Both the position numbers and the translations under genes were made by a program. Shown here piece by piece: positions 10,701 to 63,999 of a DNA stretch of 64,000 bases. The stretch lies in the IMG/VR virus record IMGVR_UViG_3300008448_012223. One strand, written 5' to 3'. The stretch comes from a virus. Under the pieces are notes generated by a model. It saw only the letters and a list, made by a program, of their open reading frames with translations, searched no databases and was not told the DNA's origin. Each line of letters begins with the position of its first letter. Position 1 is the stretch's first letter.

Positions 10701-11075
10701 CTAGCCCTAGCAGATACACAGATATTATCAATCAATACTAAATTAACGTGGGGCCTAACTAATCCATTACTCTTCTATACTCAACTAGAGTTACTACCTG
10801 GTAGAGGGGACGACTTACAAATAATAGTAGATAGCTGGACATACGATAATAATACTCTGTACCCAGTGCAGGTTGATAATAGCTATACATCCTCAGTGCT
10901 AACCTACAGGATAACTGACTATGATTGGGGAACTAATGTAGGCCATGCTATATATGATGGTCAGTATGGTTATCTCCGTCTCATCGATGATAGAGGTACT
11001 ATATACACTATACCCAGTACTGCTATCGGAGGCCGCCTCATTCCTCTCATCTCATCATCGTACCTAGTGAAATAA
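7773..11075 (+). CDS. Large virion structural protein with a gp5 C-terminal-like beta-repeat segment (putative)
   Basis: 1100 aa. The segment QFVSDTNITQRAPFMQSVTDNYVVQSG…RIIEGDDLQRSGN resembles a spike beta-helix, followed by an acidic Pro/Thr/Ser linker and a helical region. Confidence 0.4.
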   Translation: MSKIEDQLVKGDLGAGRNTPTLGPALNDLNETSKNTAYQQATETLGQAAASTTPFEPRRISSQIIVEPVRAVEGLLELRDMNLQANQVLREGIAPNTEQNINAVGTAVNGNTEQSLDGIRKLKESSLLSDKAELADISQGNVNIAPANRLTQVANNIQFVSDTNITQRAPFMQSVTDNYVVQSGNSINHISDHHYAIGKDSTRIIEGDDLQRSGNRLRLSNRSETVTQVDKATALGEMERVSADYKSYATTHTSTSLNEMRLYSYGEMVARATNVDLIAAASPVGSEAADDKEEPAEIPVGRVNIYSSVPGGGLSGMTFSPEGMNSYALKSAFQGITHNHITAGPSIFQGAGAVFSLSGVMTLNTLPAIPDEIELNVDLIPHIPEFPKLPDLPNGCGAILENTDTPEEPTQSDIEQSDPDGAQVPTESNDSATTSGDTSSGATTPGGDAIGSLGEDIRSSISASKVTPKNPGKENIAKSATDTAKNPPALVAVEPAAVSSVASDVYLEREGETVGELTISVNTPLIDIAGDVQLEVQKVGEDLQQLGLSVSATQVTTLVNQVLTISRNNSIDAIAMLEGGTSQDLVPAELKQLFLNSPSLKTYIINEIKDALSLLSIGFLELSDLDTSARGLVVSDNSTDLARVYSLVSPALDRLYESTGLSQYGDTTQLAQLGTSLLNGEKLNEQTVDALIINSISSNLNRTLGIDGADVTNKVYNLAKRLAKANDKADDEADDEPIDVDKEITSLMSSLGTTLDSDLLKDAVYYKELGESIYNSASVLADSISTGDIGSIIRGDGIKSLLSGGLDKIIGENNTALIRAATDIGRTGLALGKSLALMPSIVGALSGSAIQKIVQLIDIISCLDIVDQARDLVTAIGNISTQPNSSRPGRSGTTDTLDTLDTISLLPRLTQYTNTVIDLYNNGDEELKQEIIELIEGPIDDEDTVTPREPLSTTVELLEGRWRLGVDECFRLPRLTLALADTQILSINTKLTWGLTNPLLFYTQLELLPGRGDDLQIIVDSWTYDNNTLYPVQVDNSYTSSVLTYRITDYDWGTNVGHAIYDGQYGYLRLIDDRGTIYTIPSTAIGGRLIPLISSSYLVK

Positions 11076-11427: not shown

Positions 11428-11805
11428 GTGGATATAGCGACGAGAGACGGAGATATACTCCTCAGCACAACTGGCGATCTAATGCTAGTAGACGAAAGAG
11501 ACTATCTAGTAAGGCGAGCTCTGGAGATTCCATTGGGTCACGTAGCTATATGGGTACCTGGTACTAGCGACTTTCGATTAGTTGATGCTGACGTGGGGAA
11601 TGCCCTCTATAATTATCTATCTGATCCCCTCAATCTTGACTGGGTAGGTAGGGCTGATATAGCTATAGCCAACGCTCTACGCGCCTTACCATCTGTGTAT
11701 AGTGTACGCGATGTGGATATTCAGGTAACAGGCCCGCGCGAGGTACGCATTAACGTTATATATAATGATAACCGCTCTCTCACGACTACATTGACACCTT
11801 CGTAA
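11428..11805 (+). CDS. Baseplate wedge protein, gp25/gpW-like
   Basis: MDI…GDILLSTTGDLMLVD…LVRRAL.IPLG…DVG…I..AL…V..VDI…V.INV, a gp25-like pattern immediately before the baseplate J-like gene. Confidence 0.65.
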   Translation: MDIATRDGDILLSTTGDLMLVDERDYLVRRALEIPLGHVAIWVPGTSDFRLVDADVGNALYNYLSDPLNLDWVGRADIAIANALRALPSVYSVRDVDIQVTGPREVRINVIYNDNRSLTTTLTPS

Positions 11806-11823
11806 GCGCCCCCTCTAGAGCGA

Positions 11824-11860
11824 GTTTCAATTAATCTTAAGCCTTATTAGGGACATAACA
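11824..11860 (+). CRISPR. Solitary CRISPR-repeat-like unit (single repeat, no array)
   Basis: Intergenic GTTTCAATTAATCTTAAGCCTTATTAGGGACATAACA matches 27 of the first 30 nt of the Microcystis repeat as I recall it (GTTCCAATTAATCTTAAACCCTATTAGGGATTGAAAC). The 3' handle is diverged and there is no second copy nearby. Confidence 0.65.
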
Positions 11861-11869
11861 GGTATTTTT

Positions 11870-12850
11870 ATGAATCTAAACACTATATTAAGTACCATCC
11901 AGCAAAAACTGCAGGGGACAATACTAAATGGTACCATCAGTCCACTCAGTAATCTCTACTTCCTATTACGAGCTATAGCCACCTGTATAGTAGATCTATA
12001 CGAGGAGACACGGCCCGTTACTATAATGGATGCCACCGACGTAGAGTTAGATGCGATGGCTCTATTATACGGTATAATTAGAAGAGAGGGCACACCAGCT
12101 AATGGCTACGCACTAGTGCTGGGCCCGGTACCAGCAGGTACTGTTATGCTGACACCTGATAATGTAACTATTATTCTAAGTGAGGCCATAAACAATAGTG
12201 GCGAGACACGCGTAGCTGTAACAGTAGGGAGGCCAGGTGAGGCTGTCATACCAGCTGGCACCCCACTGCGCGATCCCGTAACGGGTGCTACTGGCGTAGT
12301 AGGCCTATATAGAAACCCATTCAATGAAGCCGTAGGTGATATCGTAAATGGCACTGATAGAGAGAGTGACGATGATTTACGTCTACGCGCCCTTGAATAC
12401 CTAGACTTATCAGATAGCAGTAGTCTATCAGCTCTACGCGCGACTATAATTAACGAGATAAATACACTCAGCCGAATAGTCATAGTTGATTCTGACCCCA
12501 CGCCTGGCTATATAACTGTTTATACCGACGCGAGCGATGAGCGCACATTATTTCAGATAAGTAAGGTTATAGAGAATAATAAGGCAGTAGGCATCGGGTT
12601 CAGGGTCAGGACACTACAGCCATTCCCGTATAATGTACGTGTGGCCGTAGCAGGTAATGTCAACGCGGGTCTAGTTATAAGACAATACTTCAGAAACCTA
12701 GCTCCTCTCACTAGTCCATCAGCGAGAGGTATAGGTCTTGCTCTAGTGAATTCAGGAGCCAGCGCAGCCCGAGTGCTGAGTACATTACCACTCGCACCAG
12801 TTGATACTATGCCAGTCCTAGAGAGTGTAGAGGTGGTTCCAATTGGTTAA
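11870..12850 (+). CDS. Baseplate J-like protein
   Basis: LDAMALLYGIIRREGTPANG…IPAGT…GTDRESDDDLRLRAL…PGYITVY, the canonical baseplate J motifs. Confidence 0.85.
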   Translation: MNLNTILSTIQQKLQGTILNGTISPLSNLYFLLRAIATCIVDLYEETRPVTIMDATDVELDAMALLYGIIRREGTPANGYALVLGPVPAGTVMLTPDNVTIILSEAINNSGETRVAVTVGRPGEAVIPAGTPLRDPVTGATGVVGLYRNPFNEAVGDIVNGTDRESDDDLRLRALEYLDLSDSSSLSALRATIINEINTLSRIVIVDSDPTPGYITVYTDASDERTLFQISKVIENNKAVGIGFRVRTLQPFPYNVRVAVAGNVNAGLVIRQYFRNLAPLTSPSARGIGLALVNSGASAARVLSTLPLAPVDTMPVLESVEVVPIG

Positions 12851-15629
12851 TTATCGTTATAGGCTATCACGACTACTAATCCCGGGGGGCATACCTGATC
12901 CTGAGATAGGAGAGGTAGAGCTATTCCTGGCTAGTGATAGAGAGGGCTATGTTAATAATATAGACCTACCACCGGATCCCAATTGCCTGGAGATCAACTG
13001 TACCCCTACGCAATGCGTAGAGCGGATAGGTATATGGAGCAATCAGGCACTAGGCCCGCTGGGTACAGGAGGTTTCTTCATAGCAGGTGAACCTGATGAT
13101 GAGAATAGAGTTACTGTAATCAACGTGGGTGTAGTATGCCCCCTCACTGGCACACCGGGGCGCTCCAATTACGCTCTCTATCCACAGAAGCAAGGTACCC
13201 TTGAGCTAACTACACCTCTCATACCAGGTATGCCGTACGCCGAGATAGTGCGCGTCACCCCAACGGCAGGAGAGTTCCTATTACGCTACTACAAGATAAA
13301 AGGCCTTCCTCATGCGCAGCTAAGCATAGCTCGCTCCCTATCGAATCAGACGGTGGATACTGAGGAGTTAGCGTGGACTGTCATAGGTATGGTAGGAGCA
13401 TCTATACGGCCAGACGCTAATGTAATATACCGCAGTTCTGAAATAGATGCGACAGTCAGCGAATACATTAGACGAGCATGCTCGGGCCTACTAGAACTAA
13501 TGGATCCCGGCAGTCTACCGGGCAGACGAGGGAGTATCCCTCGCTTTGTGTATAGCCTGAGCTCTGAGGCCGATATATACGGCTCCGAGGCAGAGAAACT
13601 ACAGGCATTAACTGAGATACGCGTAGTAGAGAACTGCAGCGACTGTATAGAGGTGGGCCCCAATAATAAACGCGTATCTCGAGAGGTACGGGATAGATCA
13701 TGCGCCGCTGTACTGCTAGCGCTCTGCATCGCGGGCTACGGAGATAAGGCCACCCCACTAGCAGAGTATCTAGTGAGTCGTATAGATAGCCGCGGCAGAA
13801 TGATTACTGGCTGGACAGACGCACGGCCTCTAAGCACGTCACTTAGTCTAGATAGTCCTACAGCTAGTGGTACGATAACAGCGGCCCTAGCTATATTGGC
13901 CTATAGTCGTGTAGATAGATCATACCTACCCCATGCTCATAGATTAATAGAGAGTGCGCGCCTCTACTATTACACATCCTCCTGGGGTACTGATGCTATA
14001 GATAGAACACTAGGGGCCCTTATAAGCCGCGTGCTAGTTGACTACGCCGATACACCTAGCCAGGCGCAGGCGAGCCTCATTAATGTAATAGGGCAGGCAG
14101 GTACAGTAAGTCCTACATTCCTAGCACTCCAACTAGAGTTAATAGGAGATGTTAGTTTAAATACTACATACCGCGCTATATTAGATAATGACCCTACACT
14201 AGAGTGTGGATTATCACTAGCTAGAGAGCTATCCAGCACCTCATTTCTAAGAGTACTAGATGAACTGGGCCCTGTGTATAGGAATTATCTCTATCGTATA
14301 GATAAGACAATGTCGCGCGTAAGAGGGGCTCTACCTACAGACTTCGGCCTATTCAGTAAAACAGCTATTAGATCAGGTAATCTAGGCCGCATACTAGAGG
14401 CCCTAGTACCCTCAATTAGTGCGGCGTATAATAAACCACTAGTAGTACCTACGGCTCCGACTAAGGTCCCTGTGACTATATCGGGTATTCTTAACTGGTT
14501 AACAGGATTAGGGTATCAAGAAGTATATGTTACAGAGGCGTGGAGAGAGGCGCTGCACGTAGTTGGTAATCTACCTACTTACGGTAACACCACCCTAGGC
14601 ACAGGACTACTAGGTATGCCCCGCCCATCAGCGCGCGTAGGAGTACTAGGACGGTGGGAGGAGAAAATTAATCCTGCTCCTGGCGGCGTGCTGGTTATAC
14701 GAGAGGGTAATATACTGGGGGCTGGCATTATAGATGATACACCAGCAGTAGGCGCGCTAGTCCCAGATGACGAGGAGTGTAATATCTGTTACTGGTTTGG
14801 TATTTGTGAGGCACCAGAGCCATATGACTGTATCGCAGGTCAATTTGACTTCTGTGAATTTGAATTATTGTTGATATATTGCCCTGGGGTTTTACCCAAT
14901 AGGCCGATAAAAATCATTGAAGTCAACCAATCTGCTGTATATTGCCCTGGGATTTTACCTGATAGGCCAAAACTTGTCTATTGCTCCCTCTCTAACTCTC
15001 AATTAACAATCTTTAGACCAGTCGATACCGTTGATGGCACTTTTACCTATTGTACTTTTCCTATCACTGTTAGCGGCAATTTTACCTATTGTGCTTTTTC
15101 TACCGCCGAATTATCGACTTTTAGACCAGCCGAAAATCTTGTTGATAATTTACCTCCAGTAACCACCACCTCTCAAGGGCAGTGGATACAATTCAATCAA
15201 TGGCTAAGGATGGGTTTTACAACTGGGAATAACAGTAGTGGTTATATTATCAATTCGGTCACTCTTCGGTTAGCAGAAATCACCGCAAGTCCCAATTTAG
15301 TTGTCAGGCTCTATAACGACAGCCCTGGAGGACTCGGTAGTCGGATAACCACTTTTACTAACCCTAGTTTCACTCCTAACATTACCAACAATTACACCTT
15401 TACTCTTACTAATCCGCAAATATTAGCCGCTAATACTACTTATTGGTTAGTTGTCGAAATTTTAAGCGGTAGTGGGCAGTATATATGGGCCTTTACTACC
15501 TCTGGCAACCAATCAGGATCGTTGGGGTGGTCGATTCGCGACGATTCTTTGTTTAGCTCTAATCAAGGAGGCACTTGGGAGTTTTTCGCTGGATCTGTAG
15601 TTTTTCAATTTAAAGTAACAGGAACTTAA
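12843..15629 (+). CDS. Chimeric baseplate/tail protein: phage-native N-terminal ~650 aa plus an AT-rich Cys-motif linker and a choice-of-anchor-R-like C-terminal domain
   Basis: 928 aa with an abrupt switch to AT-rich DNA near 14830. The C-terminal NL…FTTG…INSVTLRL…VRLYND…YTFT…LAANTTYWLV…W pattern resembles cyanobacterial PEP-CTERM/choice-of-anchor R domains. Confidence 0.6.
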   Translation: MVNYRYRLSRLLIPGGIPDPEIGEVELFLASDREGYVNNIDLPPDPNCLEINCTPTQCVERIGIWSNQALGPLGTGGFFIAGEPDDENRVTVINVGVVCPLTGTPGRSNYALYPQKQGTLELTTPLIPGMPYAEIVRVTPTAGEFLLRYYKIKGLPHAQLSIARSLSNQTVDTEELAWTVIGMVGASIRPDANVIYRSSEIDATVSEYIRRACSGLLELMDPGSLPGRRGSIPRFVYSLSSEADIYGSEAEKLQALTEIRVVENCSDCIEVGPNNKRVSREVRDRSCAAVLLALCIAGYGDKATPLAEYLVSRIDSRGRMITGWTDARPLSTSLSLDSPTASGTITAALAILAYSRVDRSYLPHAHRLIESARLYYYTSSWGTDAIDRTLGALISRVLVDYADTPSQAQASLINVIGQAGTVSPTFLALQLELIGDVSLNTTYRAILDNDPTLECGLSLARELSSTSFLRVLDELGPVYRNYLYRIDKTMSRVRGALPTDFGLFSKTAIRSGNLGRILEALVPSISAAYNKPLVVPTAPTKVPVTISGILNWLTGLGYQEVYVTEAWREALHVVGNLPTYGNTTLGTGLLGMPRPSARVGVLGRWEEKINPAPGGVLVIREGNILGAGIIDDTPAVGALVPDDEECNICYWFGICEAPEPYDCIAGQFDFCEFELLLIYCPGVLPNRPIKIIEVNQSAVYCPGILPDRPKLVYCSLSNSQLTIFRPVDTVDGTFTYCTFPITVSGNFTYCAFSTAELSTFRPAENLVDNLPPVTTTSQGQWIQFNQWLRMGFTTGNNSSGYIINSVTLRLAEITASPNLVVRLYNDSPGGLGSRITTFTNPSFTPNITNNYTFTLTNPQILAANTTYWLVVEILSGSGQYIWAFTTSGNQSGSLGWSIRDDSLFSSNQGGTWEFFAGSVVFQFKVTGT

Positions 15630-17587: not shown

Positions 17588-17836
17588 TTAATAATTTATT
17601 TCTATAGGACATAACTGAATTTTATCACCTGTTTCAGACACTCCCCAAAGTTCTAAAATTTTGCGTGTATTTTTATCACCCAAAATATCTGTAATCCTCA
17701 TAATACAATTTATGTCAATTAAATTACAGTTACTAGAGTGATATGTATACCAATGTGATATAGCATCTTCTTCGCATTTAGCCATTATTAACGAAGCATG
17801 TCTTGTTATTTTGTCTTTAATCAAAAATAGTTTCAT
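17588..17836 (-). CDS. Hypothetical protein (AT-rich island)
   Basis: 82-aa ORF co-oriented with the island genes. Confidence 0.5.
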   Translation of the reverse strand: MKLFLIKDKITRHASLIMAKCEEDAISHWYTYHSSNCNLIDINCIMRITDILGDKNTRKILELWGVSETGDKIQLCPIEINY

Positions 17837-17993
17837 ATTTTTACTCTTAAGTAATTTAGTTTTTTACTGATAACTGATAACTAACACAACTAAATTCTTC
17901 CCCAAGTGACCAAAAAATCAAAAGTTTGTTCGGCAATTACATATATTTAACTACCTCTTGCCTATTCTAAGTTCTTTATTTATTGCCATTGTT

Positions 17994-18098
17994 TTAAGTG
18001 TCTGTAGCCTCAGTTGTTTTAATAAAGCCTAAAATAGTCTCCATTATCTTTGTTGCTTCTGGAATCAAAATATTGAACTCTTCTGCTGTTATTATCAT
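17994..18098 (-). pseudogene. 34-aa remnant duplicating the C-terminus of 18868-19365
   Basis: MIITAEEFNILIPEATKIMETILGFIKTTEATDT*. Nt 17985-18068 match 18859-18942 at 81 of 84 positions. Confidence 0.55.
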
Positions 18099-18520
18099 GG
18101 TGTTACCTCGGTTTGTATTTCATTTTCGATAAATGAAAGGATATTAATCATGATTTGTGTTCCTTTTTCACGCCATAGATTTAATTCTTCATGTTTAGCA
18201 GTCCCACTTTTCTTGAATGAGATTTTACTGTTTTTTCTATTATTTATCCATATAAGAAAACTTCCTTCCCAATCTATATTAGAGATAGTAGTTCGACCAT
18301 CTATATAATTTCTAAAATCACTAGGTGAACCGTCACTACTATAAGAGTTGTTGCTATTGACCTTTATATCTATTTGTATTCCATTTATAGAATTAAGAAT
18401 AGGGTGATACCCGTAAATCATGTCTTGAGTTTTAGTTAAAGACGTAAGTGACCACTTTATCTCTGGGTAAGTTTTTTGGCAGAAATTAAATATTTTTTGG
18501 GATGTTTCTTGTTTGTTCAT
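18095..18520 (-). CDS. Paralog family A member (hypothetical)
   Basis: MNKQETSQKIFNFCQKTYPEIKW…ILSFIENEIQ. Confidence 0.7.
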   Translation of the reverse strand: MNKQETSQKIFNFCQKTYPEIKWSLTSLTKTQDMIYGYHPILNSINGIQIDIKVNSNNSYSSDGSPSDFRNYIDGRTTISNIDWEGSFLIWINNRKNSKISFKKSGTAKHEELNLWREKGTQIMINILSFIENEIQTEVTP

Positions 18521-18530
18521 TGTTATTACC

Positions 18531-18863
18531 TTAAATACAAATAACTAGATCACCGACGCAAACATTGATAAATTTCTCGCAATTGTATCGAGAATTATTG
18601 CAAGCTTGAATAATAGAGGTATTTTCTTCAACAGAAATAATCCTTCCTGACCCTTTATAAAGAATACAATGACCAATGAAGTCGCTAGTTATCGGGTCGT
18701 ATATTGGTTTGTTTGTAATTGAATAAACCAAGTGAGAGGCATCTATTCGGATACTATTTAATTCACCGCGGTTTATTACTACTTTAAAATCATCGATAAC
18801 TTCAATTACCTTAGCTGGATACGTTCCTTTAGGCGTAAGTCCTAGTTCTTTATCTGTTGCCAT
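18531..18863 (-). CDS. Hypothetical small beta-barrel protein (FlgT C-terminal-like pattern)
   Basis: AKVIEVIDDFKVVINRG…IYDPITSDFIG…GRIISVEE. Confidence 0.5.
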   Translation of the reverse strand: MATDKELGLTPKGTYPAKVIEVIDDFKVVINRGELNSIRIDASHLVYSITNKPIYDPITSDFIGHCILYKGSGRIISVEENTSIIQACNNSRYNCEKFINVCVGDLVICI

Positions 18864-18867
18864 TGTT

Positions 18868-19365
18868 TTAAGTGTATGTAGCCTCAGTTGTTTTAATAAA
18901 GCTTAAAATAGTCTTCATTATCTTTGTTGCTTCTGGAATCAAGATATTTAAACCTTCGTTATCTCCCGCAACATCTGATTCTTCTTTAGTTGAAGTAAGC
19001 TGAACCCAGCTTTTATTTTCTCGGTGATACTCTCCTATTAGCAACATAGTCCTCTGAGTTTGTGTCAAATAACTTTCTACTTTAGTCTCTAAAATGTTGG
19101 ACGGCTTGGAAAGATATTTAATTGAAATATAATATCTTCCTAGTAATATGTCAAGAGGAAAAACTCTTTGTAGTAATTCGCTAGGATAAATAACAAAAAT
19201 CACGCCTTTTAAGACAAGCTCCCCATCTCTATCTAATAAATACTCGATATTGCCGTTCTTGTCGTAGGTATAGCTCTTCTGCGCTTCAAGACTCCAATTT
19301 TTAGGCTGCTTAAAAGTTTCTTTACAGAAAACCTCAATTTGTTTTAATGCTTCTGTTTTGTTCAT
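18868..19365 (-). CDS. Paralog family A member (hypothetical)
   Basis: MNKTEALKQIEVFCKETFKQPKNW…KIMKTILSFI. Confidence 0.7.
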   Translation of the reverse strand: MNKTEALKQIEVFCKETFKQPKNWSLEAQKSYTYDKNGNIEYLLDRDGELVLKGVIFVIYPSELLQRVFPLDILLGRYYISIKYLSKPSNILETKVESYLTQTQRTMLLIGEYHRENKSWVQLTSTKEESDVAGDNEGLNILIPEATKIMKTILSFIKTTEATYT

Positions 19366-19370
19366 TAGCG

Positions 19371-19781
19371 TTAATCCTCAGATTTAATTGTTTCGGTGAA
19401 ACTTAAAATAGTCTCCATTATTTTTGTCGTTTCTGGAATCAAGATATTTAAGGTTTCGTTGTCTCCTTCACTTTTTGGTTCTTTTTTAATCGAATCTATC
19501 TTAACCCAATCATGCCCAGTGGCTGTCCCCTCTACCCTAACTACTAAAGATTTAGATGACTTAGAACGATACTCAACCCAAACATCGTATCTTCCTTTTA
19601 GCTTGTTTGGATAGAGAATATTGATAGAGCCTTCTAATACTAAGTCGGTGAAAACATCTATTTGCCTTAGTTTAAGAGTCCATTTTGAGTAATCAACCAT
19701 TTTATAGGCATTATCACAAAAAACCCCGATTTGTTTTAATACTTCTATCATTTTGTAAGCATCTATTTTCCATGCGCCCAT
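19371..19781 (-). CDS. Paralog family A member (hypothetical)
   Basis: EVLKQIGVFCDNAY…SKW…GDNETLNILIPETTKIMETILSF. Confidence 0.7.
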   Translation of the reverse strand: MGAWKIDAYKMIEVLKQIGVFCDNAYKMVDYSKWTLKLRQIDVFTDLVLEGSINILYPNKLKGRYDVWVEYRSKSSKSLVVRVEGTATGHDWVKIDSIKKEPKSEGDNETLNILIPETTKIMETILSFTETIKSED

Positions 19782-19794
19782 CTGTTGCTCCTAT

Positions 19795-20157
19795 TTACTC
19801 TTGAATCTCATCAAGAATGAAAGTGAAAATGTCTAATATTACTTTTCGAGTTTCTCTGTATTTGTTGTCAAAATAATCAGATTTTGGCCTTCTAATATAA
19901 TTAAATACTATTTTATTTTCATAGGAACAGTTATTGTCTCTATCGTCAGGGTTTATCCATAATTCAAATGTGCCTACACTATACGCTTCGCATAAAACGC
20001 GCTTAAGCAGTCCATCCAGAAAAACCTCTATTATTAATTCATCAGGAAAAAGGGGACACTGAATTATATTATCTTCAGAGTCAAGATTCCATCTTAAATT
20101 TGGATAACTTCTGTGACAGAATTCCAATATTTTTTCTGTTACTTGTTTTATGTCCAT
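19795..20157 (-). CDS. Paralog family A member (hypothetical)
   Basis: MDIKQVTEKILEFCHRSYPNLRW…ILDIFTFILDEIQE. Confidence 0.7.
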   Translation of the reverse strand: MDIKQVTEKILEFCHRSYPNLRWNLDSEDNIIQCPLFPDELIIEVFLDGLLKRVLCEAYSVGTFELWINPDDRDNNCSYENKIVFNYIRRPKSDYFDNKYRETRKVILDIFTFILDEIQE

Positions 20158-20172
20158 TAATTTGACTCCTGT

Positions 20173-20571
20173 TTATTCTTGAATTTCGTTAGCAATAAAG
20201 TTGAAAATACCTAGCATCACTTCTCGATATTTTTTGTACAAGTCCCAGTCTTTTTTATCCCACTCTTTTGTTATTGGGAGACTACGAAAATCTATTTTTT
20301 TGTCACAATTTAGATGAATACCAAACATCCCCAACCAACCTACATTAACTAGGTCAAAGTGTCCGATTATATAATCATCAGTAGTTTCTTCTTATAAAGA
20401 AGAAACCTTATTTCTTTTGTCTGAGCAAATTTTTAGAGTTACTTTAAACGGAAAATCTACCCCACAAATTACGGTTTTATTTGCATACTCACTATTTACA
20501 TTCCACTCTAAATTTGGGTATTGATTTAGACAATAACCTGATATTTTATAAGCTATTTGCCATGTGTCCAT
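20173..20571 (-). pseudogene. Paralog family A member interrupted by an in-frame TAA at 20392-20394
   Basis: Manual translation: MDTWQIAYKISGYCLNQYPNLEW…KVSSL*EETTDDY…YREVMLGIFNFIANEIQE*. It is absent from the ORF track. Confidence 0.7.
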
Positions 20572-20679
20572 TGGTGTTACTCCTATTAGGTGAATTTACT
20601 AGACAGAATATCTGCTTAGTATTGTTTTTATTCTTGAATCTCATCAAGAATAAAACTGAACTATTTTGACAAGATTTCT

Positions 20680-20704
20680 ATTGCGAAAACGAAGGATATG
20701 ACTG
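20680..20704. repeat. Exact 25-bp direct repeat of a selO segment (24550-24574); attP-like core
   Basis: ATTGCGAAAACGAAGGATATGACTG occurs at both positions. It is flanked by TATTTTGACAA at 20662-20672 and 20729-20739, TTTGACAA at 20776-20783, and an inverted TTGTCAC at 20709-20715. Confidence 0.85.
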
Positions 20705-20828
20705 CACTTTGTCACAAAATTTTACTATTATTTTGACAACTCTCAATGGTTAGAGAGAAAACATCCAATCCAGTCTTTGACAATAGCTTGTAACGGTAAA
20801 TCACGACGCTGACTTTATTCTTATCTAA

Positions 20829-20870
20829 GAGATACCACAAGCTTTATAGAAATGTCAAGGAAGAAGTCTA
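20829..20870 (-). promoter_or_regulatory. Repeated promoter cassette, copy 1 (TTGACA -35, degenerate -10)
   Basis: Shares AAGCTTTATAGAAATGTCAAG..AGAAGTCTAA with the copy at ~21570-21610. The -10 reads TATCTC. Confidence 0.5.
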
Positions 20871-20935
20871 AGGGTTTTATCTAGAAAATACACCTTAACA
20901 GTCCTATCGCTAAAAATAACAGGGCTCCTTAATAT

Positions 20936-21220
20936 TTAATCATCCCCCCAGTCCGGGTAGTATTGCAAATAAACAGCTTGTCGCTCAATAGCCTGCTTCT
21001 TAAGTTTTTCAATTTCTTCATCATCAAAGTCATACTCCCAAACTATAGAATCAAGAAACTGGTCTTCTTTTTCCATAAACAATTTCTTTTTAACCATAAA
21101 ATCTTGGCAACCATAAGACATCCCTCCGCTTTTCCCTATAAAAATAAGGGCATTGTCTTCAACGGTCGCCAAAAGCTCTTTTAATTGTTTTGCAGTAATC
21201 ACTTTGTGTCTCCTAAACAA
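20936..21220 (-). CDS. Hypothetical protein
   Basis: 94-aa ORF; ITAKQLKELLATVEDNALIFI is a typical phage small-protein pattern. Confidence 0.6.
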   Translation of the reverse strand: MFRRHKVITAKQLKELLATVEDNALIFIGKSGGMSYGCQDFMVKKKLFMEKEDQFLDSIVWEYDFDDEEIEKLKKQAIERQAVYLQYYPDWGDD

Positions 21221-21522
21221 AAAGCTATCTTATCAATATAAAGAGGAAACCCTAATACTTCCCAGCATTCTAATAGTCTTGGCACGTCAACGGTTTGAGC
21301 CGTATAATTTAATCCTGTTTCAGTGATAATGAATTTTTCAAAAATCTCTGGGGCAACCTCAACGCAACAGCAGTTGGTGTCGTCAAATTTACCAGACTTT
21401 TCGGCTAATTCAGAAGTAATCTCGATCAAAACCTCTTTTGTGAGTAATTTTTTCCAAGCTACATTATAAATGTCGTTAAACTGAGCGATAAATTTAGCGT
21501 AATCAGATCGGGAATTAGACAT
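21199..21522 (-). CDS. Paralog family B member (hypothetical)
   Basis: MSNS…LAEKSGKFDD…NYTAQTVDVPRLLECWEVLGF; closely similar to 21644-22105. Confidence 0.7.
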   Translation of the reverse strand: MSNSRSDYAKFIAQFNDIYNVAWKKLLTKEVLIEITSELAEKSGKFDDTNCCCVEVAPEIFEKFIITETGLNYTAQTVDVPRLLECWEVLGFPLYIDKIAFCLGDTK

Positions 21523-21566
21523 AGCTTATGGCAGAAAAAGGTGTTAAACTATATTTGACTTACTTA

Positions 21567-21610
21567 AATCTACCATAAGCTTTATAGAAATGTCAAGTAA
21601 GAAGTCTAAA
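21567..21610 (-). promoter_or_regulatory. Sigma70-type promoter cassette, copy 2
   Basis: Minus strand reads TTGACA-N18-TAGATT with an extended TG, directly upstream of 21522. Confidence 0.65.
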
Positions 21611-21643
21611 AACTTTTTGGGATACCAGTCCCTGCATCAAAAC

Positions 21644-22105
21644 CTATGGGCAACTCTTATAAAAATTAAAGGCGGTAGTATCAATATAACCAGTAAACCC
21701 TAATGCTTCCCAGTATTCTAATAGTCTTGGCACGTCAACAGTTTGAGCCGTATAATTTGATCCTGTATTAGTAATAAGAAATTCTTGAAAAATTTCTGGT
21801 GCAATGTAAACTGAAAGATAGCTAGTGCCGTCAACCTTGCCAGTTTTGCCCTGTAATTCAGGAGTAATCATATCAGCATCGTCAAATTTACCAGACTTTT
21901 TGGCTAATTCAGCGGTAACCCCAAGTGAAATTTTGGTTACAAGCAATTCTTGATAAACTGAATCGCTTTCATCAGATAAGCCCCACGCAATAAATCTAAC
22001 AATATAATCAGGTTTTAATTCTGTAACTTGATCTTTGACAATTTTTCCAGTTACTCCATAAACAGGAGTATTAAAATTTTGTTGCACTTCTGGAGAATTA
22101 GACAT
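21644..22105 (-). CDS. Paralog family B member (hypothetical)
   Basis: MSNS…LAKKSGKFDD…NYTAQTVDVPRLLEYWEALGF. Confidence 0.7.
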   Translation of the reverse strand: MSNSPEVQQNFNTPVYGVTGKIVKDQVTELKPDYIVRFIAWGLSDESDSVYQELLVTKISLGVTAELAKKSGKFDDADMITPELQGKTGKVDGTSYLSVYIAPEIFQEFLITNTGSNYTAQTVDVPRLLEYWEALGFTGYIDTTAFNFYKSCP

Positions 22106-22148
22106 AACTTGTAGTAAAAAAGATGCTAAATTATATTTGACTTACTTA

Positions 22149-22192
22149 AGTCTACCATAAGCGTAATAGAAATATCAAGCAATAAGCCTAAA
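22149..22192 (-). promoter_or_regulatory. Sigma70-type promoter cassette, copy 3
   Basis: Minus strand reads TTGATA-N18-TAGACT with an extended TG, upstream of 22105. Confidence 0.6.
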
Positions 22193-22321
22193 AATTATTA
22201 TCCTCTTAACGCCCGTACTTCACTACTTGAATATGAAAGACTAAAAAAATACTGCAATTTCCAAAAGCGGTCAATAACCGAAGTAGTCTGGGAATTAATT
22301 AGAAGTTTACCCGATGACTGA
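22172..22321 (+). pseudogene. Small ribbon-helix-helix/CopG-like regulator whose start codon is ATA instead of ATG
   Basis: (M)SSNKPKNYYPLNARTSLLEYERLKKYCNFQKRSITEVVWELIRSLPDD*. The other cassette copies have ATG at the equivalent position. Confidence 0.5.
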
Positions 22322-22325
22322 TACT

Positions 22326-22355
22326 AAAAGTGCCAGTTCATAGACTGGTACTTTT
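22326..22355. terminator. Bidirectional hairpin terminator
   Basis: AAAAGTGCCAGT-TCATAG-ACTGGTACTTTT between convergent ORFs. Confidence 0.75.
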
Positions 22356-22752
22356 ATTTTATTCTCTGATTAATAGCCGACGGTTTTAGCCTGCTTTCGG
22401 TTTTTTCAACTTCATCTGGAAGCTTATCTGTTATTTCTGCGTCTAGTTTTTGCTCGATTTGTAGTTCTCGCCAAAAATTAGCAATAATCCAATCAGCTAT
22501 TTCTTTAAAATCCATTTGCTCACGGCATGAATGCCAGTAATCAATGTCGTTGTTTTTTTACCACCAATAGTAAAAAGCATCCCAGATTTCTTGCCGCGTT
22601 TCTTCAGTAAGAAGAAGATTGATTCGAGTAAGTACCTTTCCTCGATAGGAATCAAGGGAAGCAATAGATCGGTGATTATAGTTCTTTGAGCGATCAAAAA
22701 AGATTTCGGAATTTATGCGATCAATTATGGGATTAGTAGAAGGGAAAAACAT
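22354..22752 (-). pseudogene. Hypothetical gene split by an in-frame TAA at 22558-22560
   Basis: …WDAFYYWW*KNNDIDYWHSCREQMDFKEIADWIIANFW… continues in the same frame to a TAA at 22354. Confidence 0.5.
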
Positions 22753-22949
22753 TGATTTGTCCTCTTGTGTGTTTTTGTTTACTAGTAGTCGTACAAAATA
22801 AATTTCCCAGTGAAGAAAAGCAGGGGGGTAAGAGATAAGGAGGGGGTTAGATATATGTAATTAATTTTGCTTAGGTACTTATAGAATAAATACATTATGC
22901 ACGATAGCTTAACTCAACATTTGCATCTACCGCCTCATACCAAAGGCCA

Positions 22950-23156
22950 TTAGTTATCATCTTCGAGTCGAGACTTATCAATTATAACACAAGGTTTCCA
23001 AGTGGATTTTTCCTGAGATTTAATGTTTACTTCTTCGGAAAATAAGATTTTCGGTTGATGAGAAACTACATTAGAACGTTTAATTTTAGTTAAATCCAAG
23101 TATTCGATAATATTTTCTCCATCATCAAATTTGCGGTCAAAATCTTCAGCTTTCAT
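22950..23156 (-). pseudogene. BrnA/CopG-type antitoxin N-terminus fused to unrelated sequence
   Basis: MKAEDFDRKFDDGENIIEYLDLTKIKR is the typical N-terminus of this family, but the expected C-terminal RHH region is not present. Confidence 0.55.
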
Positions 23157-23238
23157 AAATTTTTACCTCTTTAGGTCTAGAGCATCGGACTGAAATAATA
23201 CGGATTTTGGTTTGACGATAGGTAACTACAGCTGACCA
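23146..23238 (-). pseudogene. BrnT-like toxin C-terminal remnant
   Basis: WSAVVTYRQTKIRIISVRCSRPKEVKIYES* overlaps the antitoxin ATG. The 5' part is missing, with selO abutting it. Confidence 0.6.
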
Positions 23239-23253
23239 TTACTTATTACTTAA

Positions 23254-24678
23254 TTACTGTTTATTCTGTAATTTTATCACTAATTCATGGAAAGGTTGCC
23301 AATCATCGTTATAAGTAATTGCCTCCCAAACCGATTCGATTAGCGGTCTAAGTAAAGCGGTTTTAGGATTATAATGCGTTAAGGTGTCGTCAACTTCAGA
23401 CAAGGAATCTAGGGGTAATTGATTTAAGACCAAACTATATAACTCTCGCCAACGTTGCCAATCAGCTTTTGGTAAATCCGTATTTTCAAGAATTAGGGAA
23501 CTATTTTCTCGCCAACCGTAATTAAATTGTTCACTTAATTGATAGAAAAGTTCGTGATAACCCAGATCAGTTTCTTGGAGAACTTCCACAGTTTTGCTGA
23601 CCAGTAAAGCGGATTCGGGAGTAAAAATATCCTCAAAACCTAACTTTTTGAGCATCATTTTTTGATAATAAAAATTGTAATGCTGGTCATAGTTAGCCAA
23701 AGCCATATCTAACTCTAACAAGGAGATGACCATCGACAGGGGAGATTGCAGTAACTCTAGATTTAAACGACAGATAAAAGGCTGATTACCATAACTATAA
23801 CGGCCACCGTAGTCGAAATAAGCCGCCGTAAATTGGGGGTTATAGGAAGGAATAAAAGCGTAGGGACCATAATCGAAACTTTCCCCAGTAATTGACATAT
23901 TATCGGTATTAAGAACCCCATGACAAAAACCTGCGGCCATCCATTGGGCTGCTAGTTTAGCGGTTCTTTCGATTAAAGCGGCGTAAAATTTTAAATAGCG
24001 ATCACTATCTTGGGGATTGATTTCAGGATAATAATAAATAATCACATGATCGAGGAGTCTTTTAATTAAATCGCCACGTTTAATATGAAATAAACGCTCA
24101 AAAGTCCCGAAACGAATATGAGAATTACTAACTCGAATCATCACCGAAGATCGCGTCGGGGAAGGTTCATCGCCGCGCCAGAGAGCTTCCCCCGTTTCCA
24201 CCAAACTCAGACAGCGAGAGGTATTCACCCCTAAACTGCGTAAAGCTTCCGCGGCTAAGACTTCTCTGACTCCACCCTTGAGAGTTAACCTACCGTCTGC
24301 ATGACGAGAATAGGGAGTCCGTCCCGATCCTTTCGTACCAAAATCGTATAATTTGCCATCAATACCCCTAACTTGACCGTAGAGAAAACCGCGACCATCT
24401 CCCAAGAAAGGATTATACTCGCCAAATTGATAACCGTGGTAACGCAGGGCCAAAAAGGGGGTCAGGGATTGAAATTTACCAAAAGCCTCGATAAAATGCT
24501 CATCTAAAGTTAATTCTGGCTGAATTCCCACCAAAGGTAATAAAGCATCATTGCGAAAACGAAGGATATGACTGGGAAAATCCGCAGCCGCAACTTGATC
24601 ATAGTATTGGTCCCCCAAGTCCTGCATGGCGCTTTCGTAAGGGAGACTGAGAAAGGGATTGGTGAGGTGGTCTGTCAT
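23254..24678 (-). CDS. selO: Protein adenylyltransferase SelO (YdiU/UPF0061), cyanobacterial type, intact
   Basis: Contains YHGYQFG…[22 protein letters not shown]…[15 protein letters not shown] and [14 protein letters not shown]…DYGP. Confidence 0.95.
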
Positions 24679-35598: not shown

Positions 35599-38500
35599 TC
35601 CCTTATCTTTAAATGGCACTATACCATCGGGTCATTCCGTTAGAAAAGCGTACTTTGAATTATTAGGTGAAGATGATACAGATGCGACTGCAATCCTATC
35701 GGTTAATACTGTTATTGTTGAATTAGGTGCTATTATACCTACTAGCTATAGCCCTTCTTATATAAATCTTCTATCTCAATTATTATCAACAGCAGATGGT
35801 AGCTTAAAAGCCCACGTAGTAGAGAAAGTAAGAGCAATAATTGGGAGAGTTGGTAATAATCCTAATATTCCACAGATGCAGGCGATTATTGGCGATACTC
35901 CCTCACGATTAGCGCCCGCCCCACCTGGCACAACAGTTAGCCCTAAGTTGGGGTTAACTGATGTAGTACCAGAGGAGGGGTTACGCCTTACCTCCTATTT
36001 TAATTTTGACCCCTCCGATAGCGATATAAATCTTCTTGTAGGACTACTAGTTGATGATCGATTAGATGATGAAGCCAGAGGACAGGCTATAAAGTACCTT
36101 AAAGATACAGTCTCTACATTGCCTATTAGTATGGACCTCACCGAGGTAGGAAAAGAGAAGGCTAGGGCGTATATAGCAAAACTTGACACTCCGAGTAGTA
36201 CAGTTATACCTACAGGTAGTAAAGTAGATATTTCTAAGGGGGATGCCAACAAATCAACAACTAAGCAGGAGCCGACTATAACGTATCCACCTGCGGCAGA
36301 CTGGGGTATGAGGGTTACACAAGTAGACACTAATAAGAGTTATTTCTTCAGTCTATTGCCGGCTATGGACTCAGTCATACCTATGACAGCGAGTAAGGAT
36401 GTACCCAACGCACTGCCGGGATTATACATACGAGTTAAGGCTAATATAGCTAAGTTGCGGGTACCAGGCAGCACACCTATCTACCAACACATGGGGATAG
36501 ATAGTGTGATGGTAACTGTAGTAGGGATGTTCACTGGAATGGATGGTGATAAACCGAGCCCGGCTACCTATCTATCTCATGCTACTGGTAAGGATAAGGT
36601 CGGGACTCTTATGGCTAAGCTAGATACTTATGGCGCTATGCAGAGTTTTTACGAGCACGCATACCTGAGTGGGGCTGATCTAGACGTAGAGATCAACATG
36701 GCACGCTACCAGGCCTTCGACGTAGAGGAGGGGGTGATACGTTCAGCTAAGACAGGTAATCCCCGCTTCCGCGGGCACTTGTCACTACTCGAGGTAGCAC
36801 ATGCACGTAGCGATAGAACATACTATACGCTACAATTCGAGACGCGCTCTCTAACGGAGGATAAGTGTGAGATAACTAAGATAGATCACATACCTGATAG
36901 TCTCAAGGAGAGACTAAGCCAGGTCGCAGTAGAAGAGCAGACCGTCGCAGTTGAGAGCATCAGGACTATAACTGACGACATTAATATGGCTAAGGAGGGA
37001 ACCAATGGCAAAAAGATATCTGAGTGGGAGAGTGGGGATCCTGACCCCAGCGGCCGGGCCCTTCGCGTAAATGAAGTATGTGATAACGACGGTAAGTGTA
37101 GATACTACGTCTTCACTCCAGGAGGGCAGCTATATGAAGAAACTGATAAAGAGGAAATAGATAAACTCAAGAATGAGAGAATAGGGGGCTGGAATACTAA
37201 TAGACTTATACGCACTGGAGCAAGTATTGCAGCTACAGTGACAACCTGTGCTGTAGCTGCAGGCTCCATACCTGCAGCTGTTACCATTGTAGGAGGAGTA
37301 GTAACAGCAGCGGCGGCCGCAGGTTGCGGTGCTGTTGCAGGTGATCTCATTAATACAGTTGCTAATGGAGATAACAGACAATACACGCCTGTCGAGGCGG
37401 CCATAGACGCAGTAACTATACTGGCTCCTACTAAGATAGGAGCCGCAACGCTAGGCAAAGTAGTTGGTGTTGGGGCTAAGGTTGCATCTGCCCCAGTAAA
37501 ACTCGCGGGTAAGGTTGTATCAAAGACTGGTATATTAAGTACTGGGCCAGCAGCTAAGATAACTAGTAGCCTGGCTCAGTCCACTCAAGGTGTTCGTAGG
37601 GCTATTCTCTCTACTGCTAATAAGGCTAAGAATAGCGCAGTAAACTTTGCACTGAGCCCCACTCCCGATATACTACAACCTCCCTCGAATTATCTCAGTA
37701 GTAGTAACGTCGCGGCTAGGTTCACTAGGTTTATAACTCCTGGCCTAGGCTCAGCCAGTAATACAACTAATGCAGTCGACGACGCAGGCCGGTCGACTGG
37801 CCGCGTTTCTACTGCTACTTCTCAGACTAATAATATTGTTGATGATACAGTTACTAACGCTACACGGTCAACTTTAACAAGAAGGGATATTCCTAATATA
37901 GATAAGGTAAGTCAAGAAAGCGGCAACATAGCCATCCAAATGCGTAATGAGAATATATCTATAGATGATGCGTCTAGATGGATAGTTGATAATTATCCAA
38001 ATGCTAATTCTGGAGAAGTACTCCGTGCTAGACAAATTATACGTAATAATGTTGATTTTCCAGTAGAAGATGATCCTGCTTCGTTGGCCACTGCCCTATA
38101 CAAAGAAGGTTATAACCCACAAGATATGAGCCCAGCTGAATTAATTAATTATATTAAGAATGCTAGGCCCGGCATATATGACGAGGCTAGGCCCGGCATA
38201 TCTGACGAGGTTGTGACTAGTTTAAAGAATCAGGTACTCAGTGAATATAATGAGAAGTATCCCAGAGCTATAACTGATGAGGGCGTATACAATGACATTA
38301 TAGAGATTGCCGATACTCTACGCCCAGACGCCACTCAGGCCCAGAAGCTAGAGGCTCTTGAGAATATCCCTGATAAAGAGGGGGGCCTCCAAGTACTTAA
38401 CGAGGTACTAAATAGACGATTAACTAGTAATATAAGAGTTACTTCAGTAAGACCTCCAGAAGAGGCGCTTCCTCCTCCACTTAATCCTGACGGTACCCCT

Positions 38501-39249: not shown

Positions 39250-40398
39250 ATGAGATTACTGATATACATAGGTCAGTCTGTAACTATGAGATATCTAGTA
39301 GGTAAGGTAGAGTCTCAGGTGACGGGTACGCTATCTATCACTGATAAGATAGTGACAGTAGGGCCCGCCCGTTCTAACCTACGAGATGTACTGATTATAA
39401 TACAAGGCAATAATACTATCTACACTAGGCCAGATGGCACGCCGACCTATAACGCCCCAGTGGCGCAGACACTAACACGTCCGTTTAACTGGGCTGCTGA
39501 CGCAGAGAGGGCTGTGATAGAGTACCTAGAGCAGGGTATAGCGCCAGAGGTACAGCTTATACGCCGTACTGCACTAGTCACATACATAGATAGCATCATA
39601 GTAGAAGCAGTCAGATTAATTGATAATGACCTCATATTAGAAACAGCAGCAGGAGACGTAAGAACGGCAGTCAACGCAATACTCCAGATTACTACTGGGG
39701 TTCCATCTCGATGGAGTGATAGTATAATAAACCTGGAGGTATGGTTAGAATCTCTGGGCTCAGGTCGTTTCTACATAGATAGAATAGGAGACGCCACAAC
39801 GATAGAGGCAGATACAGTCTATACTAGTCGGGGCCGTCAGATAGTAGGTAGACTAGGGGATATAACTGTAACAATGCCAATAGAGACAGTAGAGAGTGTA
39901 AGACAAGGCGATAAGACGTGGTTTAATACCCGGCCGCCGCGGGGGCCTATAATTCCTAACTTAGGTCTACTCCGTGCTGCTACTAGGTTTATACGAAACT
40001 ACACAATAAATGAGACTATAGGCGCAGAGTTATACGATACGTATCTAATAGATGGTACTCGTATAAGCAGCCGGGCCATGTATTTACAGGATGGCTGCAT
40101 AGTATTAGCAAATGGGCCAGAGAGCTGGTGGGTCAGTATAAGAGATGTAAGGTTACTGACGGCTACTATGTTCTCTGGTCTATCAGTTAATACGCTTATA
40201 CAGCCGGGCAGGTCTACTCCACAGGCCCGTACTGTATCTATACAATCATCGATAGGCGTAATATATAGGGAAGGTGACTATAAGCCCATATTCTTCTTAT
40301 CTATAAAAGAATGGAGTAATATATTCATTCTTGCTACATACGAGAATGATAATTACCTAGTAGCTAAAGAGGAGATTGGCCGAATTGAGTACTATTAA
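39250..40398 (+). CDS. Hypothetical protein
   Basis: 382-aa ORF with a GGAGG ribosome-binding site upstream. Confidence 0.7.
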   Translation: MRLLIYIGQSVTMRYLVGKVESQVTGTLSITDKIVTVGPARSNLRDVLIIIQGNNTIYTRPDGTPTYNAPVAQTLTRPFNWAADAERAVIEYLEQGIAPEVQLIRRTALVTYIDSIIVEAVRLIDNDLILETAAGDVRTAVNAILQITTGVPSRWSDSIINLEVWLESLGSGRFYIDRIGDATTIEADTVYTSRGRQIVGRLGDITVTMPIETVESVRQGDKTWFNTRPPRGPIIPNLGLLRAATRFIRNYTINETIGAELYDTYLIDGTRISSRAMYLQDGCIVLANGPESWWVSIRDVRLLTATMFSGLSVNTLIQPGRSTPQARTVSIQSSIGVIYREGDYKPIFFLSIKEWSNIFILATYENDNYLVAKEEIGRIEYY

Positions 40399-41221
40399 AC
40401 CATGGCAAGAACTAGTAGCAGAACAGCGGCGGCTCAACCCCACGCGGCCGTATCAGCCGCAGGCAGGTCTATTTGAGTATAAGGGCCTAGATGCACTAGT
40501 CATAGAGGTAGAGAGTTACACATGGGTAGGAATTCAGTGGCTGGGCGGCGATTTATGGGGCCGTCGTGGCTGGCAGGAGATAGCCGTATTTGTAAGAATA
40601 GATGGCCAGAGCTGGGCCAATAGGCGATATATCTACTTACCAGTAGATTTAGTAGAGCATCTCCTGCCATATATACCAATGGTAGATGGTGGTTATACAC
40701 TACGTTATCCCTCAGCGAATGATCTAGTACCTATATTCAGTGGTAGGGTGGTGTTGTTAAGTAGTCAGGGTATACACCCCCTATTACCCGGCTGGGTATG
40801 GACTGGGCGAGTGATATGGCCTTACTATGAATATCAGCATGTATCAGGTGATATAGCACCGCCTGATACTCTCCAGTGGAGTAGGTTGAGACCTACTAAT
40901 CTACTAGATCCCCTTGGTCCACCAAGCGTAGAGCAGATGACGCGTACACTACCTAATCTAGTAGGTGAGTTACCCACTAGATTAGAGGAACCCTGGATAG
41001 GAACGTATACGGGCTGGTCTACTATTAATTATGGTGAGGAGACGACGCTATATCAATATAGAGCCCAGACTCAGGAATTATTCCTACTAGATAGCCCCCC
41101 ATTATTAGATAGTATTTTATACAAACAGCAGTGGTTAATTGATAGGGTGCGCCTCAGTCATAGAGTTGTACAGGGCGTAGTTATACAGCAGACAGTAACA
41201 GCAACATTGAGATTATGGTAA
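40376..41221 (+). CDS. Hypothetical protein
   Basis: 281-aa Trp/Pro-rich ORF in the operon. Confidence 0.65.
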   Translation: MAELSTIKPWQELVAEQRRLNPTRPYQPQAGLFEYKGLDALVIEVESYTWVGIQWLGGDLWGRRGWQEIAVFVRIDGQSWANRRYIYLPVDLVEHLLPYIPMVDGGYTLRYPSANDLVPIFSGRVVLLSSQGIHPLLPGWVWTGRVIWPYYEYQHVSGDIAPPDTLQWSRLRPTNLLDPLGPPSVEQMTRTLPNLVGELPTRLEEPWIGTYTGWSTINYGEETTLYQYRAQTQELFLLDSPPLLDSILYKQQWLIDRVRLSHRVVQGVVIQQTVTATLRLW

Positions 41222-63681: not shown

Positions 63682-63999
63682 TCAATTAAATGTAAAAAGT
63701 TTGTCGATAAAACTTGATATAGTTTCTGCTATTTCCTCTGTTTTATCACGAATAAAGGTAATCTCTTCCTGTTTGTCAGAGATTCCAAAACTTGAGTAGT
63801 ATCCATCATCTGGATCATCATACGCTCTACATATAGCTATTTCTTTTATTTTTCCTGTTCTTAAATCAAATATCGTACCAGTTACTCTGGTTTTTGGTAT
63901 TAAGCTAAAGCTTGGTACAAAACCACAAAAAACCTTGACATGGGCTACCGTCTGACAATCTAAAAGAACCTTAGCATTACCTGTTAGGTAAATTTGTTG
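63682..63999 (-). CDS. Partial AT-rich ORF, possibly another family A paralog (5' end outside window)
   Basis: Manual translation: …GTIFDLRTGKIKEIAICRAY…KTEEIAETISSFIDKLFTFN*. The C-terminal helix resembles KIMETILSF. Confidence 0.5.
   Translation of the reverse strand, partial: QQIYLTGNAKVLLDCQTVAHVKVFCGFVPSFSLIPKTRVTGTIFDLRTGKIKEIAICRAYDDPDDGYYSSFGISDKQEEITFIRDKTEEIAETISSFIDKLFTFN

Follow-up and report, generated by a model that had tools for sequence, protein, structure and literature searches.

The 64-nt gap just ahead of a baseplate gene of a cyanophage contains a sequence resembling a host CRISPR repeat, and the question raised by this locus is how such a repeat came to stand there and whether it still serves the phage. 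A first-pass annotation, made from the sequence, had proposed either an RNA decoy against the host type I-D system or a site at which host Cas6 cuts the late mRNA of the phage. The DNA analyzed here (the window) is the complete 64,000-nt stretch of the IMG/VR record IMGVR_UViG_3300008448_012223, which belongs to a Fukuivirus (Ma-LMM01/MaMV-like Microcystis myovirus; 96.5% identity around the repeat site). The gap, located between ORFs 11428-11805 and 11870-12850, is one of three longer than 50 nt among 14 consecutive genes of the + strand, in agreement with its previous description as one of the few of this operon. The features of the region are the following:

11428-11805, + strand: upstream gene (125 aa), ortholog of Ma-LMM01 gp100, probably sheath-initiator/gp25-like
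11806-11823, + strand: left flank, native phage DNA with a variable poly-C tract, ending in GAGCGA like the repeat-less sister lineage
11824-11852, + strand: positions 1-29 of the host repeat DR1, standing where the sister lineage has the 3-nt PAM GTC
11842-11852, + strand: Cas6d-type hairpin, with a predicted cut between 11852 and 11853
11852-11853, + strand: point at which 10 nt were lost, the 8-nt crRNA handle plus two bases of the flank, as aligned against the full-length alleles L058 and L062-L065
11853-11869, + strand: 5' leader of gp101, conserved in all alleles, putatively the remainder of the start of a former protospacer
11870-12850, + strand: Baseplate J-like/wedge gene, ortholog of Ma-LMM01 gp101 (PF04865, E 1e-10; phrog_6, E 1.5e-25)

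The 30-mer quoted in the first-pass annotation lies on the sense strand at 11824-11853 (+), is present as a single copy in the window and was found in 0/100 shuffles. Its first 29 nt match 27/29 positions of the G18 variant of DR1, the Microcystis type I-D repeat taken from Table 3 of Yang 2015 (PMC4428289); this variant is common in host arrays and the two differences are C4T and C21T. The next best match in the window reached 18-19 and the maximum over 200 shuffles was 21, so that a chance match was ruled out. Along the 30 nt the identity is 27/30 with the A18 variant and 28/30 with G18, the same values given in the first-pass annotation. None of the other Microcystis repeat types scored against the window, Rfam gave no match to the unit, and neither a second repeat nor a cas gene was seen near this intergenic unit. 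The type I-D identity, the host origin, the sense orientation and the solitary character previously proposed were all confirmed. On the other hand, the handle had been described as replaced, and it was actually deleted (10 nt), since relatives keep all 37 nt. Judged from its sequence, the unit is a real host-derived solitary repeat and, anatomically, a remnant of a solitary repeat unit (SRU). The window allele covers 29-30 of the 37 nt and falls outside the SRUFinder criterion (near full-length, 90% identity; applied here without the program). Nor does it correspond to a viral mini-CRISPR array, which requires a promoter or leader and a spacer enclosed by two or more repeats, as every allele of the gap has one repeat.

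Regarding the neighboring genes, the downstream one is a Baseplate_J gene (PF04865), as had been anticipated, whereas the gp25-like identity of the upstream one comes from Atlas look-alikes, PF10934/PF07409 (sheath initiator/GP46) at 0.92 with language-model features, the searches against Pfam and PHROG having given no match. As to the late character attributed to the operon, gp100 and gp101 were classed as 'middle' by Morimoto 2018 (B5) (PMC5780444), yet during Ma-LMM01 infection both are silent at 1 h and rise afterwards (log2 FPKM in Table S3 of PMC5780444: 0 at 1 h, ~7.5 at 3 h, 10.4 at 6 h), with similar levels for the two genes. No promoter-like site was seen in the 64-nt gap, nor was there any terminator or strong structure in it (z +1.4). 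With both neighbors silent that early and no promoter-like site in the gap, the profile does not look like that of a dedicated early inhibitor.

The Cas6-1 protein of Synechocystis cuts its 37-nt repeat at position 29/30 (G29/A30) (PMC5741207) and, by analogy, Cas6d would be predicted to cut the window allele between 11852 and 11853. This cut would leave a 17-nt leader with the Shine-Dalgarno-like CAGG (11859-11862) intact, which may be translatable. The CCT-TATT-AGG hairpin indicated by the first-pass annotation is a possible register, but the host register, with pairs C19-G29, C20-G28, U21.G27 and U22-A26, is equally likely (0.25 each). C21T converts one stem pair of the window allele into a wobble, while the two basal G-C pairs and G29/A30 are kept. 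In context, the hairpin pair probability is 0.25 for the window allele against a mean of 0.15 for host copies, and folding does not separate them.

Conservation among relatives had been put forward as a check of the proposed function, and the gap was collected from 57 loci of GenBank phages, IMG/VR and metagenome contigs. The following counts come from exact-protein look-ups and are biased, so they are not population frequencies: the full 37-nt repeat is present in 5/57 loci (L058 and L062-L065), with G36 for A36 plus either G29A or two stem wobbles; one locus of the 57 lacks 2 nt of the handle and 3/57 lack 6 nt; the allele of the window, with 10 nt missing, appears in 10/57; a 13-nt deletion including G29 and A30 is found in 9/57 (Ma-LMM01, MaMV-DC, DH01, CH01, CH02, DL01 and others); a 39-nt deletion, giving a 35-nt allele in which the last six repeat bases alone are kept, occurs in 12/57; and the sister lineage, accounting for 17/57, reads flank-GTC-flank where the carriers read flank-37-nt repeat-flank. 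The repeats of L063-L065 are full length and show 34-35/37 identity to DR1, and no allele combines a perfect hairpin with an intact handle. Window-type gp101 is present on 69 contigs, and the window allele is carried by 9/9 contigs among the matches listed. Conservation was thus not observed: the unit is absent in the sister lineage, nearly deleted in a close relative, and its cut site is damaged in Ma-LMM01 as well as in every MaMV isolate.

The divergence of the sister lineage is 6% in gp100, 8-11% in gp101 and 18% at four-fold sites. The gene order is shared by a distant relative (36% identity), whose gp100 and gp101 orthologs overlap and leave no gap. As the two genes of this relative overlap without a gap and the sister lineage has GTC only, the repeat is a gain, its acquisition being most simply placed after the separation from the sister lineage, with repeated damage since then. 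A different reading of the 35-nt allele, as an empty pre-insertion site with an insert of exactly the 29-nt crRNA 3' handle (RNA-templated insertion), was considered and rejected, because comparison with the full-length alleles shows it to be a deletion in which the six terminal bases of the repeat are still present.

No sign was found that selection maintains the unit, such maintenance being expected of a working inhibitor even if it is outside the formal definition of an RNA anti-CRISPR. In the core (positions 1-28), 6/28 sites are variable against 49/231 four-fold sites of the flanking genes (Fisher p = 1.0), a comparison of 28 sites in 11 related, recombining carrier alleles that would miss weak constraint. 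Diversity is 0.055 in the core and 0.058 at four-fold sites. Five different deletions all overlap repeat positions 29-37, which contain the cut site or handle; under uniform placement this has a probability of ~0.002, a post hoc figure that leaves out homopolymer slips in the left flank. The four partial deletions spare positions 1-28. Neutral-rate variation and repeated loss suggest that the window copy is probably a decaying relic.

The trinucleotide of the sister lineage bears on the origin of this relic. The type I-D PAM is GTH in M. aeruginosa and GTN in Synechocystis (PMC10212523); GTC fits GTH and is immediately followed by the sequence that full-length carriers have after the repeat. 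At this site the signature is confounded, GT and C being also the first two and the last bases of the repeat, and taken alone, with one outgroup lineage, it is ambiguous: a deletion could also have left GTC. Further DR1 copies elsewhere in Fukuiviruses gave independent repeat-to-phage junctions. At four of them the orthologous repeat-less allele (69-79/80 nt identical) shows GTG, GTT, GTC and GTT, respectively, before the right flank. GT represents 5.7% of dinucleotides, and its presence at 4/4 junctions would occur by chance at ~1e-5. In the first, a 35/37 solitary repeat of Ma-LMM01 at 13.6 kb (L084:1496-1532, corresponding to Ma-LMM01 13614-13650; the repeat is also in L118 and L119) bridges a deletion of ~860 nt, and repeat-less relatives have GTG. 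The second is the same 13.6-kb repeat with another right junction (L119), where GTT is found in 3/5 loci and ATT in 2/5. The third is a captured host leader plus first repeat (L105:1390-1426, L113 and L115), with GTC in the repeat-less allele; this leader of ~130 nt in Fukuivirus contigs is near-identical to the Microcystis one. The fourth is a partial repeat (L115), with GTT. The array ends of Ma-LMM01 and MaMV-CH01 were left out of this count, as long flanks did not confirm them. Inside the Ma-LMM01 array, one spacer has a non-PAM flank, GCC.

At these four sites, and with the mentioned confounding at the window site, the 3' end of the repeat is joined to the base that follows the PAM in the repeat-less allele. 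The junction rule read from these alignments is that the repeat 3' end joins the first base of the protospacer, as in the host array. A comparison of both flanks with 568 spacers and 17 Microcystis genomes gave no matching host spacer, in a sample that is tiny relative to Microcystis spacer diversity and for an old event. The left flank was also considered as protospacer, and no GTN was present 33-40 nt upstream.

With moderate confidence, we consider that the unit is the scar of a CRISPR escape by PAM replacement that is now decaying. The ancestral phage would have carried the GTC PAM followed by a protospacer covering the ribosome site and start of gp101, with a matching spacer in a Microcystis type I-D array; both this donor array and its spacer are inferred. 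Protospacer-spacer recombination or break repair would then have copied into the phage the repeat preceding that spacer. The right junction would have been set by the spacer homology and the left one by the 2-nt GT common to the PAM and the repeat start; in general, left junctions would be illegitimate or due to microhomology, and the copied piece would be sometimes partial and sometimes accompanied by the leader or further spacers. Once the PAM was replaced by the repeat end the site would read as 'self', PAM loss being the immediate gain. Afterwards, the full sense-strand repeat would have let host Cas6d cut the baseplate mRNA, attaching the 8-nt handle straight to the gp101 ribosome site with its start codon. 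According to the crRNA maturation model of PMC10212523, such a handled leader would be a substrate for Cascade loading and 3' trimming, and the repeat would be costly. The handle would have been removed because it would make a crRNA of the gp101 ribosome site. There were at least five distinct deletions, which took the handle, bases of the cut site or, in one case, almost all of the unit, with the remainder drifting at the neutral rate; these deletions would remove the cost without restoring the PAM. The window allele would be one handle-less survivor, which may still be cut by Cas6d. An origin by PAM replacement appears better supported than the decoy and processing readings previously proposed.

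The alternative that survives best is that the handle-less unit, whatever its origin, now works as an RNA anti-CRISPR (Racr), which we regard as unlikely. According to this scheme, Cas6d would cut after G29 and stay bound, Cas7d would coat the upstream gp100 RNA and, lacking the 5' handle, neither Cas5d nor Cas10d would be recruited; Cas proteins would thus be titrated while the phage replicates (from 3-6 h onwards). RacrIF1 does not need its handle, and its inhibitory activity resides in the RNA upstream of the cut (PMC10651486). The window allele, which is widespread, keeps the basal pairs and the cut-site bases, and the four partial deletions take only the handle or the cut site, as the decoy model predicts. 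Moreover, CRISPR seems ineffective against Ma-LMM01 despite matching spacers (Morimoto 2018, PMC5780444). Nevertheless, the core substitutes at the neutral rate, the unit is almost completely lost in the closest neighbor on the local tree and absent in the sister lineage, and Ma-LMM01, every MaMV isolate and L063-L065 no longer have an unaltered G29. It also has no promoter of its own and its flanking genes show FPKM 0 at 1 h. If deletions must take the handle, the sparing of positions 1-28 is mildly unlikely at most, and these phages contain better candidates elsewhere, 35-37/37 copies, some of them behind strong promoters. It is similarly doubtful that a captured escape repeat was trimmed several times independently to a handle-less form that spares the baseplate gene and would still trap Cas6d and Cas7d. 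If this were true, the window allele would be the first type I-D RNA anti-CRISPR and the series a natural one of Racrs born from escape scars.

It is rather improbable that the unit has another origin, as the likewise decaying relic of some old solitary repeat or mini-array, and that the GTC of the sister lineage is a deletion leftover that never had to do with PAM replacement. GT and C are indeed the terminal bases of the repeat, whole-unit deletion demonstrably happened once (the 35-nt allele), and the search of 568 spacers and 17 Microcystis genomes did not find the matching spacer. However, this requires a deletion that happened to leave exactly a GTH trinucleotide, the PAM signature recurs at four unconfounded junctions and the repeat-less allele sits in the outgroup position.

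Regulated mRNA processing and an attachment site, for their part, fit the allele series poorly. In the former case, host Cas6d would cleave the baseplate transcript 17 nt ahead of the gp101 start and stabilize or activate the downstream message, for which we see little likelihood. The predicted cut is just upstream of CAGG, Cas6 leaves a more stable 5'-OH end (PMC10651486) and degenerate repeats precede ORFs at another Fukuivirus locus, but the operon stays the same among the alleles, most of which are without the unit or an intact cut site, Ma-LMM01 shows comparable levels of gp100 and gp101, and several Microcystis genomes are devoid of type I-D (PMC4428289 and the genomes examined here). 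Integration into host CRISPR arrays at the repeat, as in a Streptococcus pyogenes phage, is a known function of some repeat-like sequences (PMC10651486; bioRxiv 10.1101/2020.10.09.333658) and seems here highly implausible given the position inside an essential virion operon, the truncated or repeat-less state of most alleles, the presence of several such repeats at unrelated sites and the lack of any phage-flank/repeat junction in 17 Microcystis genomes.

Other repeat copies were observed in these phages. Type I-D mini-arrays with 36-37/37 identity are found in Ma-LMM01 (three repeats; L100:3001-3180, corresponding to 35763-35942) and MaMV-CH01 (two repeats; L101:3001-3113, corresponding to 40326-40438), and also in MaMV CH02, DL01 and DL02, directly behind a perfect sigma-70 promoter and beside early genes; their GenBank annotation is only '56 bp repeat unit'. 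The spacers of the Ma-LMM01 and MaMV-CH01/CH02/DL01/DL02 mini-arrays match sibling phages. The spacer of CH01 is identical at 39/39 positions, with a GTT PAM, to this promoter as present in Ma-LMM01 and in four IMG/VR phages, and CH01's own copy of that promoter differs at spacer positions 7-10, making this mini-array a candidate inter-phage weapon. An AT-rich cassette of small unknown genes (L090/L103; MaMV-DH01 ~163.1-164.1 kb, CH01 and DL01), which could be anti-defense or Cas6-processed, contains three degenerate, minus-strand DR1-like repeats, and two of these stand directly before ORF starts. A 3' partial repeat (last 25 nt, handle intact) is present in an inverted-repeat region of several Fukuivirus contigs (L104:1016-1052, L105, L106, L108, L111 and L112), for which no repeat-less allele was found. 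At one IMG/VR contig end (L015), two DR1 repeats and one spacer are fused to an apparent capsid gene of a different phage, by capture or misassembly, and three further viral contigs (L114, L116 and L117) carry a three-repeat mini-array of a related cyanobacterial repeat whose last two spacers are near duplicates.

In the window itself, position 11075 (gp098/gp099 junction) is an empty site, occupied in relatives either by a miniature element of 130 nt with hairpin ends or by a full element that encodes an RRXRR (IscB/IsrB-type) protein. Positions 17588-24678 form an opposite-strand island with duplicated blocks (repeat families D1-D4, D7 and D9) inside the virion gene region. Microcystis type I-D spacers match at 19779-19814, 22654-22694 and 63920-63947 (35/36, 35/41 and 26/28, respectively), two of these matches being in the AT-rich opposite-strand island.

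Solitary repeats of phages are usually read as RNA decoys, and this allele series points to another source, the overwriting of a PAM by a host repeat, at five sites in one cyanophage genus. PAM replacement offers an origin for SRUs and mini-arrays, and many predicted Racrs may be scars; the presence of a PAM in the repeat-less allele would be a simple test for this. It also bears on why Ma-LMM01, part of a cultured phage-host pair, infects Microcystis strains holding matching spacers. The genus-wide junction rule and the intact mini-arrays deserve more attention than the window copy, whose probable relic state limits its own interest.

Comparison with known systems indicates that the window unit resembles the SRU RacrIF1 (Camara-Wilpert 2023, PMC10651486) in being one host-type repeat, intergenic, sense-transcribed and without array or cas gene, and apparently in keeping the Cas6 hairpin part (repeat 1-29) that suffices for inhibition in RacrIF1; for SRUs, see also Faure 2019, as cited in PMC11656645. 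Unlike RacrIF1, it has 29/37 nt, no promoter of its own and no adjoining acr genes, and it is neither early nor conserved. The subtypes tested for Racrs were I-C, I-E, I-F and V-A, not type I-D (PMC10651486), and no Microcystis entry is present in the part of the supplements of that paper examined here, which may not include its large SRU table. With respect to DR1 (Yang 2015, PMC4428289), the orientation is the same and the identity is 27/29 to the G18 variant, the handle being deleted and C21T giving a wobble. Virus-borne mini-CRISPR arrays (Medvedeva 2019, PMC6858448; PMC11656645) likewise consist of host-identical repeats in a virus, but at the window site the repeat is single, without a second one to enclose a spacer, and neither leader nor promoter is present. 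In the literature searched, which left most subscription papers outside reach, no description was found of CRISPR repeats in Ma-LMM01/MaMV genomes, of PAM replacement by a repeat, or of the Fukuivirus junction rule and mini-arrays. Spacer-mediated recombination between phage and CRISPR locus in staphylococci, reportedly a route to transducing particles, is the subject ascribed to Varble 2019 (Nat Microbiol 4:956). The window site is like that process in that phage DNA is joined to a repeat at spacer-protospacer homology, and unlike it in that a lone repeat would have replaced the PAM at five sites within one genus and has become fixed there in the genomes of viable phages.
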